Positions 7,581 through 10,705 of a DNA stretch of 64,000 nucleotides are shown in pieces (the stretch's first letter is position 1; the number at the start of each line of letters is the position of its first letter). Below the pieces are notes generated by a model. It saw only the letters and a list, made by a program, of their open reading frames with translations, made no database searches and was not told the origin of the DNA. The translations under genes and the position numbers were made by a program. Source of the DNA: an uncultured Pseudomonadota bacterium (GTDB lineage: Bacteria; Vulcanimicrobiota; Vulcanimicrobiia; Eremiobacterales; Eremiobacteraceae); assembly GCA_963736005.1 (NCBI GenBank), contig CAVTNB010000001.1, positions 320,001 through 384,000 on the forward strand, written 5' to 3'.

Positions 7581-9143
7581 ATGGCTACGCAGGCTTCGCC
7601 CATCACCGCTCGCAGTTCTGTCGCCCCGGCGAAAGTTGGGGGCGGTGGCGTTTCGCTCATTTTGGTCACCACCACCGTGATGATCGGCATGATCATGGCG
7701 ATCATCGATGCGTCGATTGTCAACGTCGCGCTCGACAAAATGGCTGGCAATTTGGGCGCTTCCATCGATGAAATCGGCTGGGTCGCGACCGGCTACATCC
7801 TCTCAAACGTCATCGTCATGCCGCTCAATGGCTATTTGACCGCGGTTTTGGGGCGCAAGAACTTTTATGCCGCGAGCATTGCGATCTTTACGATTGCGTC
7901 GCTCTTGTGCGGCACGGCGACGAACGTGTGGCTGCTGGTCGCTTATCGAGTGCTCCAAGGACTGGGCGGTGGCGCCTTGATCCCGACTGCCCAGGCGATC
8001 CTGTTTGAGAGTTTCCCGCCTGAGAAACGCGGACAGTCTATGGCGTTTTTCGGTCTGGCTGCCATGGTTGGCCCAGCACTCGGCCCGACCCTGGGTGGCT
8101 ACATAATCCAAAACTATACGTGGCCGCTCATCTTCTTCATTAATATCCCGCTGGGCATCTTGGGCTTCTTCATGACGTTGGCTTTCATCGAAGACCCCTC
8201 ATATATCAAGAAGCCAGAACGCGCCGCCGACTGGATCGGCATTACGGCGATGGTCGTTGGGATCTCTTCACTGCAATACGTGCTCGAGCGCGGTCAGCAC
8301 GATGATTGGTTCAATTCACCGCTCATTGTGACGCTCACGGTTGCCTCGGTAGCGGGAATTGCATATTTTATCTATCGTCAGCTGCACGACGAGCATCCCT
8401 TTGTCGACTTGCGTGTCTTTCGTTTCCCCGCATTCGCCTATGGAAACGTCGTTGGGATTGTCACAGGGTTTGGCTTGTTTGGGTTGACGCTGGTGCTGCC
8501 GCTGTTCTTGCAGATCGTTCTCGGGTTCGATGCATGGCAGACCGGGCTTGCAGTCTTGCCAGGAGCCCTCGCGACGGCGGCGGGCATGCCGATTGCGGGT
8601 ATGCTCGTCAACCGCATTGACCCGCGATTGTCAATCGCGTTCGGGCTGATTGCCTCCGCAGTTGCTGCGTGGTGGCTGGGATCGTTCAGCGCGCAGGCGG
8701 GCTATTGGGATATCTTTTGGCCTCGCGCCCTGCAGGGTTTCGCGCTGGGGTTCATTTTCGTGCCTTTGTCCACAGTCATGCTGGCGCAAGTTCCCAAGGG
8801 GGAGTTGGCGAACGCTACCGGCTTGTCAACATTGATCCGTCAGCTCGGCGGTAGTTTCGGGATCGCGATTTTGACGACGCTGCTCGTCTGGAAGGAAAAA
8901 TACGTCTTTTCCAACCTGACGGCGAGCGTCACCAACGCGCATTACGCCGTGCACAACTTCTTGAATCAATCGAGCGGTGGCCCGCTCAATCCCACGCAAC
9001 AACTCGATTCGATGCTCCAGGGCGATTCAGCGCTGATCGCCTTCAATTTCCTGTTTAGGCTGTCAGCGATTGTCTTTGTCGCCTCGCTGCCGTTCGTATG
9101 GCTGTTGCCAAAAGTGCAGCCAGCTGCCGAGTCACCAGGGTAG
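7581..9143 (+). CDS. DHA2 (EmrB/QacA) MFS efflux permease
   Basis: DASIVNVAL, WVATGY, RVLQGLGGG, GPALGPTLGG, IFFINIPLG motifs. Confidence 0.93.
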   Translation: MATQASPITARSSVAPAKVGGGGVSLILVTTTVMIGMIMAIIDASIVNVALDKMAGNLGASIDEIGWVATGYILSNVIVMPLNGYLTAVLGRKNFYAASIAIFTIASLLCGTATNVWLLVAYRVLQGLGGGALIPTAQAILFESFPPEKRGQSMAFFGLAAMVGPALGPTLGGYIIQNYTWPLIFFINIPLGILGFFMTLAFIEDPSYIKKPERAADWIGITAMVVGISSLQYVLERGQHDDWFNSPLIVTLTVASVAGIAYFIYRQLHDEHPFVDLRVFRFPAFAYGNVVGIVTGFGLFGLTLVLPLFLQIVLGFDAWQTGLAVLPGALATAAGMPIAGMLVNRIDPRLSIAFGLIASAVAAWWLGSFSAQAGYWDIFWPRALQGFALGFIFVPLSTVMLAQVPKGELANATGLSTLIRQLGGSFGIAILTTLLVWKEKYVFSNLTASVTNAHYAVHNFLNQSSGGPLNPTQQLDSMLQGDSALIAFNFLFRLSAIVFVASLPFVWLLPKVQPAAESPG

Positions 9144-9176
9144 CCGGATCGCTCGCGGCGCGCAAGTTCGAAAATG

Positions 9177-9247
9177 TGCCCCGCCAGAGAATCGGACTCT
9201 GACCTGCCGGTTAAAAGCCGGCTGCTCTACCATTGAGCTAGCGGGGC
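9177..9247 (-). tRNA. tRNA-Lys(TTT)
   Basis: Cloverleaf; anticodon arm GCCGG-CTTTTAA-CCGGC; atypical T-loop TCCGATT. Confidence 0.88.
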
Positions 9248-9250
9248 GAG

Positions 9251-9326
9251 CGCGCCTGAAGGGACTCGAACCCCCAAAACCTTCGCGTTCGAAGCGCGAC
9301 GCTCTATCCAGTTGAGCTACAGGCGC
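9251..9326 (-). tRNA. tRNA-Arg(TCG)
   Basis: Cloverleaf; anticodon arm TCGCG-CTTCGAA-CGCGA. Confidence 0.92.
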
Positions 9327-9334
9327 ACATCTAT

Positions 9335-9412
9335 TGGGGTGAATGACGGGAGTTGAACCCGCGACCTTCGGTGCCACAGACCGACGCTCTAACCAGCTGA
9401 GCTACATTCACC
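9335..9412 (-). tRNA. tRNA-His(GTG)
   Basis: Cloverleaf with encoded G-1, C73 and CCA. Confidence 0.95.
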
Positions 9413-9496
9413 ACGCGACTTCCAGTTCTCCGAAAAATTTCGTCGACCTTGAGAGCAAGACCGTCGCCACGATTAGCAAAATCTGGGGAATGTTCG

Positions 9497-9570
9497 CGCG
9501 CCCGGCGAGACTCGAACTCGCGACATCCCGCTTAGAAGGCGGGTGCTCTATCCAGCTGAGCTACGGGCGC
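9497..9570 (-). tRNA. tRNA-Arg(TCT)
   Basis: Cloverleaf; anticodon arm CCCGC-CTTCTAA-GCGGG. Confidence 0.95.
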
Positions 9571-9609
9571 ACACCTTCAATGTTCGACCATTATGAGGTA
9601 AAGATAATA

Positions 9610-9684
9610 TCGGGCGGACAGGACTTGAACCTGCGATCCTCTCGGTCCCAAACCGAGCGCTCTACCAAGCTGAGCTACCGCCCG
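9610..9684 (-). tRNA. tRNA-Pro(TGG)
   Basis: Cloverleaf; anticodon arm CTCGG-TTTGGGA-CCGAG. Confidence 0.95.
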
Positions 9685-10189
9685 TTGAACGCTTGCGCGA
9701 CCAAAACTGCGCCGCAGTCTTGCGTCTGTGACAGTTCGCGCAACGCACCTCACATTTCGCCACTTCCTCCAAGATTCTTTTCCAGCTAAATGCCCGGCCA
9801 ATGAGTGTAGAAACGTTATCCTGCTTCGTTCCCCTTACATGGTCGAATTCGAGAACGATTGGGTCTGCTTCGCCGCAATCGACGCAAGCCCGTTCAATCA
9901 AGAATTCGTCCATCAGTTTCCGATTTCTAACCTTGTACCGGCGCTGATTAGCTTGTCGCCTCTGATTGTGTTTCTTTGCGTTTCGCTTGTAGTGCTCTTG
10001 GTTATATAATCGTTGGCATGGCCTGCAATACGCGTTTGGCCTCGGGCATGACAGACTTCGACTTGGAAATTCGAATGCAGCCTTGACGGCGCCGCAAAGC
10101 GGGCACTTCTTCGTGAGCGGAGAATTCAGTGGAAAGAGACCGATTTGGTAAGATACTACTGCATCGTTCATGGACAACCTATCACGCAC
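9662..10189 (-). CDS. HNH endonuclease with N-terminal Zn ribbon
   Basis: CPLC...CRPC ribbon; CVDC...LEFDH...N...CEVRCANCHRRKT; start uncertain (ATG 10171 possible). Confidence 0.85.
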   Translation of the reverse strand: MRDRLSMNDAVVSYQIGLFPLNSPLTKKCPLCGAVKAAFEFPSRSLSCPRPNAYCRPCQRLYNQEHYKRNAKKHNQRRQANQRRYKVRNRKLMDEFLIERACVDCGEADPIVLEFDHVRGTKQDNVSTLIGRAFSWKRILEEVAKCEVRCANCHRRKTAAQFWSRKRSTGGSSAW

Positions 10190-10261
10190 GCTTGTTTGCT
10201 TGTCTAGTCAGAACAATGTCGTGAAACAAAAGAATTTTTTATTCGCTTTGAAGAGGCTCTC

Positions 10262-10705
10262 ATGGACAAAGCACGACTGTTAGCGTTCTTGCGTACTCAA
10301 ACGTTCGCCGTGCAGAGCTCCGTCTCGGCGGATGGCGGACCACAGTCCGCAGTGGTAGGCTTCGTGGTCAGCGATGAGTTCGAAGTCTTCTTCGATACGG
10401 TCGACACTTCGCGAAAGGTAAAAAATCTTCGCGGCAATCGGAAGATCGGCTTCGTCATCGGTGGGCTGACATCGGGGGACGAGCGAACGGTCCAATACGA
10501 GGGCGTCGCCGACGAGCCAAGCGGGTCCGAACTCGAGCGGCTCAAGCAACTATACTTCGCTCGATTTCCGGATGGGCCGAAGCGCCAAACATGGCCGGGC
10601 CTCATGTACGTGCGTGCCCGTCCAACTTGGATTCGATTCAGTGACTACAACCAAGATCCGCCCTTGATTGTGGAATATAGCGCTTCGCCGCTCGAGCGGA
10701 CCTAA
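10262..10705 (+). CDS. Pyridoxamine 5'-phosphate oxidase-like (PPOX split-barrel) protein
   Basis: SSVSADGGPQSAVV...DTVDTSRKVKNLRGNRKIGFVI...TVQYEG. Confidence 0.85.
   Translation: MDKARLLAFLRTQTFAVQSSVSADGGPQSAVVGFVVSDEFEVFFDTVDTSRKVKNLRGNRKIGFVIGGLTSGDERTVQYEGVADEPSGSELERLKQLYFARFPDGPKRQTWPGLMYVRARPTWIRFSDYNQDPPLIVEYSASPLERT

Follow-up and report, generated by a model that had tools for sequence, protein, structure and literature searches.

Described precedents for the layout reported here are found in phages T4 and T5. T4 SegB is a homing endonuclease of a tRNA cluster which recognises a conserved motif of the tRNA T-loop, and its homing into segB-less phages has been shown (PMC2330249). 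The same paper proposes that, when tRNA-Arg matures, segB is cut just ahead of its stop codon, after the last codon, which would restrain its expression, and it cites this idea of control by processing for the F-Tfl enzymes of T5 as well. In the RefSeq annotation of T5, hegD, hegC and T5.069 overlap the 5' ends of same-strand tRNA genes by 23, 14 and 24 nucleotides (nt), respectively. Two studies concerned with mycobacterial tRNA arrays describe HNH genes as the most widespread protein genes in the arrays of bacteria, plasmids and phages, and read them as homing genes and markers of horizontal transfer (PMC5966550, PMC6582537). Here, we describe an HNH endonuclease gene at the head of a chromosomal tRNA operon in an uncultured bacterium of the Eremiobacteraceae (assembly GCA_963736005.1, contig CAVTNB010000001.1). 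The window is the whole stretch of 64,000 nt that was analysed, positions 320,001 to 384,000 of the forward strand of this contig, and coordinates given without a contig or locus name refer to it.

The gene lies on the minus strand and was called as an open reading frame (ORF) of 175 amino acids (9662..10189) ending in ...STGGSSAW*. As the earlier note had described, and as the ORF listing, ARAGORN, Rfam and the sequence all bear out, the ORF is co-oriented with a run of Pro-Arg-His-Arg-Lys tRNA genes, reads 23 nt into tRNA-Pro and terminates at TAG 9664-9662. This tRNA-Pro(UGG) occupies 9610..9684 on the minus strand (ARAGORN and Rfam) and is the sole gene for its anticodon in the assembly. 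The overlap (9662..9684, minus strand) takes in the acceptor stem, the D-stem and part of the D-loop, where the stop codon is found. The final codons are ACG GGC GGT AGC TCA GCT TGG TAG, with the tRNA starting at the second base of ACG, and the gene is indeed fused to the head of the operon without a spacer. We consider, with a probability of about 60%, that this is a free-standing HNH cassette of the homing type seated at position +1 of tRNA-Pro, that it is made as a passenger of the tRNA precursor, and that the loss of its stop codon is a by-product.

The layout was followed through 110 loci, of which 30 came from 61 related genomes and 80 were taken from more than 563 matches in contigs representing one genome per species. 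Removal of duplicates left 97 copies, locus L103 contributing two rows through a frameshift; three unpublished genomes (G008, G013 and G011), the source of loci L017 and L125, are counted in the genome tallies. The stop falls inside a co-oriented tRNA in 64 of the 97 copies, and in seven the ORF reads through the whole tRNA. The ORF abuts the tRNA in two copies, stops 1–30 nt before it in ten and 31–100 nt before it in one, while four ORFs enter an antisense tRNA from its 3' end, two are the upstream members of tandem pairs and seven have no tRNA called downstream (two of these near the end of the locus). An end within the tRNA is not obligatory, for 13 copies have a stop of their own that precedes or abuts the tRNA, and four lie antisense. 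It is more than chance, since the overlap recurs in 64 of 97 non-redundant copies, and the layout is real and conserved. The possibility raised earlier, that homologues usually stop before the tRNA, did not materialise.

TAG is the stop codon in 74 of the 97 copies. The overlap most often measures 10 or 11 nt (45 copies), the stop then falling on tRNA bases 8-10, and overlaps of 23 or 24 nt, as in the window, come next with 16 copies. The distance from the CxNCH[RK] motif of the protein to the tRNA start is 36–44 nt in 48 of 80 copies, and it is there that the terminal helix of the structural model ends. In Eremiobacterota the partner is mostly tRNA-Pro(tgg); elsewhere it is a tRNA for His, Arg(tct), Arg(tcg), Arg(acg), Gly, Thr or Glu, in hosts including Acidobacteriota, Chloroflexota, Dactylosporangium and one Berkelbacteria genome. 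The layout accounts for the ORFs that gene callers place across tRNA genes at these loci.

At one locus (L010, genome G003) and its public twin (L048) a single continuous open frame spans HNH, tRNA-Pro and HNH, followed by tRNA-Arg(tct), the first ORF crossing the entire tRNA-Pro into the second HNH copy. The genome of the window contains a second HNH gene (G000 contig C3, locus L141, 553-1260, minus strand) which heads a tRNA pair and codes for a distant relative of 235 amino acids. Its protein scores above the Pfam cut-off for PF01844 (22.6 bits), and its frame is open through the whole of tRNA-Gln(ctg) (583-656), ending inside tRNA-Glu(ctc) (502-575).

That the ORF encodes an HNH endonuclease, as the earlier note had proposed, is supported. 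Residues 26-167 match phrog_2255 'HNH endonuclease' (E-value 5.3e-34), and phrog_3106 and phrog_4234, which carry the same name, match as well, the three PHROGs spanning E-values of 5e-34 to 8e-15. There are 3216 homologous proteins at E<=0.001. Eight residues, C102, C105, D116, H117, C150, N152, C153 and H154 (CxxC...DH...CxNCH), are invariant in an alignment of 31 sequences, and the protein thereby possesses the catalytic Asp-His, Asn and His and the two zinc-binding pairs of the HNH (beta-beta-alpha-metal) endonucleases. The AlphaFold (AF2) model, with a predicted local distance difference test score (pLDDT) of 86.9, contains a zinc-ribbon hairpin (residues 26-37), a basic helix 43 residues long and a C-terminal strand-strand-helix domain (113-168), the last made up of strands at 113-117 and 146-150 and a helix at 151-168. 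The tail encoded within the tRNA is poorly modelled (pLDDT of 50 for the block 171-175). Six close pairs of intact copies gave ratios of nonsynonymous to synonymous substitution (dN/dS) of 0.07-0.16 at dS 0.30-1.41, indicating purifying selection.

These results bear directly on the view that the ORF is spurious or decaying and merely runs into the tRNA by chance. It draws on the database searches: Pfam gave nothing significant for the protein (best PF01844, 13 bits against a cut-off of 21.4, E-value 0.12), NCBIfam gave no match, and searches of solved structures were weak. A sequence-profile search of the PDB returned solely a weak row for a Dof-type zinc finger (E-value 0.33). Foldseek with the whole model found no PDB match at E<=0.001, its weak rows including the Gme HNH 4h9d (E-value 2.4), Cap5, ZRANB3, PacI and Hpy99I, and a wide search with VIA-align, again with the whole model, reached a best Z of 4.6. 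The structure searches gave nothing above noise, probably owing to the 43-residue helix in the whole-model query, and PF01844 is matched at E<0.05 by just one of 31 family members; a large HNH family that Pfam misses is thereby flagged. Set against the homologues, the phrog_2255 match, the invariant catalytic and zinc-binding residues, the low dN/dS and the junction kept in 64 of 97 copies, chance read-through is highly improbable.

Many relatives of the protein are 230–305 amino acids long, with two HNH units per protein, or stand as tandem copies (P0012-P0120; loci L095, L105, L106, L108, L111, L117 and L118). They come mostly from Chloroflexota (Limnocylindria) and lie beside tRNA-Gly(ccc) or tRNA-Arg(acg).

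The distribution of the gene points to a mobile cassette. It was matched in 37 of the 61 related Eremiobacterota genomes, patchily within genera (4/7 in g2, 8/12 in g13), and had no match in the other 24, which include 20 of the 47 high-quality ones. Tandem copies are present, and one copy holds four stops and is a pseudogene. Empty alleles (L031, L034, L039, L124 and L127) keep the same flanks as occupied ones, the distance from the upstream gene to tRNA-Pro being 61-140 nt in HNH-less alleles versus about 600 nt in occupied ones. The comparison of alleles with and without HNH, which the earlier note had called for, thus uncovered one of the features expected of a free-standing homing gene, namely a presence/absence polymorphism at one locus with intact flanks among close relatives. 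Other slots in the same operon are also used, between Pro and Arg(tct) and between Arg(tct) and His, and reverse-orientation copies lie between Arg(tcg) and Lys. We propose that a cassette of about 0.5 kb, consisting of a promoter-like motif and the ORF, entered the operon head at the precise point where tRNA-Pro(UGG) begins. By analogy with T4 SegB, the enzyme would probably cut HNH-less tRNA alleles, into which the cassette would then be copied by repair.

Two other ideas on its spread were set aside. A cassette carrying its own tRNA-Pro in place of the resident one was considered; variants of the acceptor stem track host family and not HNH presence, although 75 nt hold little signal. Transfer across phyla was considered for L059 ('Acidiferrales'), L065 ('Acidoferrum') and L061 ('Babeliales'), which share Eremiobacterota flanks and motif. 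Flanking gene and upstream motif are as at Eremiobacterota loci in L075 too, despite its other taxon label, and these four contigs are probably mis-binned.

Upstream of the gene we located a promoter-like motif (10172..10206, minus strand) consisting of TAGACA (10206-10201), a 16-nt spacer and TGATAG (10184-10179), with 7 nt from there to an ATG at 10171. This ATG is the likely start, rather than the GTG at 10189 of the called ORF, because the closest homologue (P0001, 93% identical) starts at the equivalent Met and the motif ends 7 nt upstream; the probable extent of the gene is then 9662..10171 (minus strand), coding for 169 amino acids from ATG 10171-10169. Throughout family f1 the motif takes the form TAGACA/TTGACA-N16-17-(T)GATAnn-N6-7-ATG at a constant distance to the start (loci L003, L004, L012, L016, L023, L024, L026, L029, L030 and L113), and it also precedes copies that occupy other slots of the operon, reversed ones included. 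Family f2 has instead a palindrome of the type GTGCCA...TGGCAC, and a third group has TATAAT followed by GAGGTG. With strict patterns, the motifs were found in at least 35 of 69 occupied loci and in none of seven empty alleles, which argues that the motif travels with the gene. Two similar sites occur elsewhere in the genome of the window, and a site of this kind precedes an ATG at G000:C1:547374. No Shine-Dalgarno sequence was seen before the start at loci with the f1 motif, and the arrangement suggests that the HNH message is leaderless, with +1 predicted at the start codon.

In copies of family f2 and of the Elarobacter type, the palindrome is imperfect, GTGC(C/A)A-N4-6-TGGCAC, and stands 20-30 nt before the start (loci L014, L015, L019, L047, L052, L056, L059, L065, L070, L084, L086, L092, L102 and L116). 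The f2 palindrome resembles an operator to which a DNA-binding protein would attach as a dimer, and that protein may be the nuclease. A sigma-54 reading of its TGGCAC motif was rejected, as its GG-to-GC spacing misses the consensus by one base and varies between loci, and no convincing match was found by eye for the upstream motif as a remnant of a tRNA.

Behind tRNA-Pro the operon continues on the minus strand with tRNA-Arg(UCU) (9496-9570), tRNA-His (9335-9411), tRNA-Arg(UCG) (9250-9326) and tRNA-Lys(UUU) (9176-9247), all detected by ARAGORN and Rfam. The assembly has 46 tRNA genes in total, and none of the five anticodons of the operon has a second gene among them. Their order, Pro-Arg-His-Arg-Lys, is kept across the class in the Eremiobacterota comparison. 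On the other side, a PNPOx-like gene (10262..10705, plus strand; PF01243, E-value 8.5e-12) is divergent from the HNH gene and is followed by a gene of the Ham1/RdgB type, while a gene for a major facilitator superfamily transporter converges on the tRNA operon from downstream. Only in the window and in G002 does the PNPOx-like gene separate the Ham1-type gene from the cassette; in other genomes of family f1, the Ham1-type gene is the immediate upstream neighbour of the cassette or of tRNA-Pro.

As the five tRNAs are single-copy, the operon must be well expressed, and as the upstream gene is divergent, transcription would have to begin within the HNH gene or in the 90 nt that separate it from its neighbour. 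A terminator scan of 9000-10500 gave no sites. With zero spacing, which leaves no room for a terminator, and no terminator-like site, any HNH transcript would continue into tRNA-Pro, and we infer that some co-transcription of the nuclease with the tRNAs is hard to avoid. HNH and tRNAs would thus be made as one precursor, in the context of which tRNA-Pro folds as a cloverleaf. Having no spacer before the tRNA, the ORF lacks a stop of its own and would end on a TAG held in place by the constraints on the tRNA, normally U8-A9-G10 and here the TAG of the D-loop. Cleavage by ribonuclease P (RNase P) at position +1 would free the tRNA and deprive the HNH message of its last seven codons and stop. 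The nuclease would then be completed only on unprocessed precursor, and its level is most likely kept low. The same genome has a gene for transfer-messenger RNA (tmRNA) on contig C3 (145744-146094; tag ANSEYALAA, by ARAGORN), and handling by tmRNA, or decay, of the non-stop message is plausible. The tRNA punctuation of animal mitochondria, where tRNA processing releases mRNAs without a complete stop, offers an analogy only, since mitochondria complete the stop by polyadenylation and a bacterial message would remain non-stop.

How the stop codon came to lie in the D-loop can be read from a genome of the same genus, G002, which shares 91.5% DNA identity with the window over 2.6 kb (pairwise comparison of L001 and L002). 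The window has a 2-nt insertion relative to G002 at about 9691..9692 (minus strand), about 8 nt before the tRNA, and this shifts the tail from ...FNGR*, with its stop at tRNA bases 8-10, to ...STGGSSAW* with the D-loop stop. P0001 and L002 both end in ...FNGR*. By this comparison the D-loop stop is a recent, tolerated, lineage-specific variant of the usual stop at bases 8-10, since it was produced by an insertion absent from G002. The 23-nt overlap state occurs at several separate places on the tree of 86 copies.

The earlier note had gone further and seen in the junction a built-in limiter. Here, the stop within the tRNA would itself be selected: RNase P would make a non-stop mRNA, ribosomes would stall on it, and tmRNA would tag the nuclease for degradation. 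The dose would thereby be capped, and any disturbance of tRNA processing or of ribosome rescue would raise it. Several observations agree with such a device. The stop lies within the tRNA in those 64 copies over several phyla, plus one phage, and spacerless junctions arose independently with the tRNAs for Pro, His, Arg(tcg), Arg(acg) and Thr. From the HNH motif to the tRNA, 12 of 80 copies have an in-frame stop, against 22 and 40 copies when the tail is read in either of the remaining frames, and there is a preference for the phase with its end at tRNA bases 8-10 (43:21:16). The genome has tmRNA, and the same logic is proposed for SegB and the F-Tfl enzymes in the passages cited above (PMC2330249). 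However, the depletion of stops in the tail falls largely within the conserved terminal helix of the protein, and the copies are related, so that counts overstate the number of independent events. The 13 copies with a stop of their own do without the arrangement, and RNase P cannot act on the message of the four antisense copies. The 2-nt difference from G002 alters both the tail and the place of the stop with no sign of cost, and the 11 phage relatives inspected vary from overlapping the next tRNA by 49 nt to lying 240 nt away from it. We therefore regard a selected limiter as unlikely, and nothing is in favour of the role as a sensor which the earlier note had also offered. In the passenger reading that we prefer, stop-codon loss is probably a tolerated by-product of tight insertion and not a purpose-built device.

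Relatives of the HNH gene occur in several phyla and in phages. A tree of 86 of the 97 copies (a quick search with support from the Shimodaira-Hasegawa-like approximate likelihood ratio test only; 11 copies that lacked the motif or were too short were left out) groups them by host family and tRNA partner, with 19 label changes versus 34 in shuffles, although many forks lack resolution. Strong purifying selection and largely vertical inheritance raise the possibility that the host depends on the cassette, which would then be selfish no longer, or only in part. Its promoter might drive the five single-copy tRNAs ('promoter capture'), in which case precise loss would be lethal, or the nuclease might have a host function, for instance one directed at foreign tRNA-cluster DNA or at incoming phage. 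In the window, where the neighbouring gene upstream is divergent, the sole conserved promoter-like element before the operon is that of the cassette, the motifs are absent from all seven empty alleles, and the five tRNAs behind it are the only copies within a set of 46. The gene is nevertheless dispensable for the clade, having no match in 24 of 61 genomes, and pseudogenised and tandem copies occur. No defence-system context was seen around the gene, no dedicated PADLOC search having been made, and the promoter function is deduced from motifs, a promoter inside the ORF being conceivable too. Dependence of the host is, on balance, improbable.

We also considered a two-way lock which joins both ideas. 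A leaderless promoter of the cassette would be captured by five essential single-copy tRNAs, so that no clean deletion is possible, and RNase P would in turn strip the nuclease of its stop. The dose would then be set by the first ribosome against tRNA maturation, with tmRNA clearing the rest. This is rather doubtful; if true, it would explain how an intact selfish nuclease has stayed under long purifying selection in a bacterial chromosome.

Several points weigh against the passenger reading. Nuclease activity, target site and gene conversion are carried over from T4 SegB by analogy. The promoter of the cassette is assigned from sequence motifs, and a generic sigma-70 scan of 9000-10500 gave no promoter sites. 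The first 25 nt of tRNA-Pro are alike in occupied and empty alleles, so that self-immunity is left unexplained. Spacerless junctions arose independently with different tRNAs, for which packing alone is not a full account. Finally, the clustering of the tree and the dN/dS of 0.07-0.16 suggest a resident gene passed on vertically for a long time under selection, more than one that often invades and decays, and this pattern of selection and inheritance would also fit a gene useful to the host.

A search with tblastn returned 232 phage records with relatives of 36-47% identity. Eleven phage loci were inspected; ten lie among tRNA genes, and in nine the gene begins no more than 50 nt after the upstream tRNA. 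Gp109 of Streptomyces phage JimJam has a 10-nt overlap, with its stop on bases 8-10 of tRNA-Pro(tgg). Gp155 of Mycobacterium phage ArcherS7 overlaps tRNA-Trp by 49 nt, and the match in phage Mx1 overlaps tRNA-Lys. In the remaining inspected loci there is a gap of 10-240 nt, or the next gene is protein-coding.

We found no paper on a phrog_2255-type family in Eremiobacterota and none tying the layout to tmRNA. As for a link between a stop inside a tRNA, RNase P and tmRNA, the SegB proposal was the only one that our search, which covered articles without their supplementary files, brought to light. The claim of an undescribed system can nonetheless not be upheld, given the annotated overlaps of T5 hegC, hegD and T5.069 and the removal of the stop already proposed in the passages on SegB (PMC2330249). 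What the locus adds is that the habit of phage tRNA clusters, a nuclease wedged against a tRNA and ending on that tRNA's conserved TAG, is also conserved and long-lived at a core single-copy tRNA operon. It occurs in the uncultured phylum Eremiobacterota, with relatives by other tRNAs in Acidobacteriota, Chloroflexota, Actinomycetota and candidate-phyla bacteria. The more than 560 genomic loci form a natural data set for the 18-year-old proposal that tRNA maturation restrains the expression of homing nucleases.

Compared with the known systems, the window gene has two features of the SegB and hegC-hegD type, a same-strand tRNA cluster and an ORF end inside the next tRNA. Like SegB, which according to the passages cited is part of the tRNA precursor (PMC2330249), it is a free-standing nuclease gene in a tRNA cluster. 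SegB, however, has the GIY-YIG fold and is a phage gene, whereas the window gene is HNH and chromosomal, with homing assigned by analogy. The F-Tfl genes hegC, hegD and T5.069 of T5 are HNH ORFs which enter the next tRNA, as in the window, but close homology to hegC and hegD was not found, tblastn on the T5 tRNA region giving E-values of 0.003 (hegA) and 0.26 (hegC). The tRNA arrays of mycobacteria differ in being accessory and horizontally acquired, and overlap of an ORF with a tRNA is not mentioned in the passages concerned (PMC5966550, PMC6582537). The phrog_2255 HNH proteins of actinophages (for example JimJam gp109 and, from Mycobacterium phages, ArcherS7 gp155, Bonray gp168 and Lewan gp109) belong to the same family and are set between tRNA genes, the junction of JimJam gp109 being that of most Eremiobacterota copies. 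The phage copies lie in accessory tRNA arrays at variable 3' distances, whereas the copy in the window stands first in a core operon of the chromosome, one made up of single-copy tRNAs, and has a promoter-like motif of its own.

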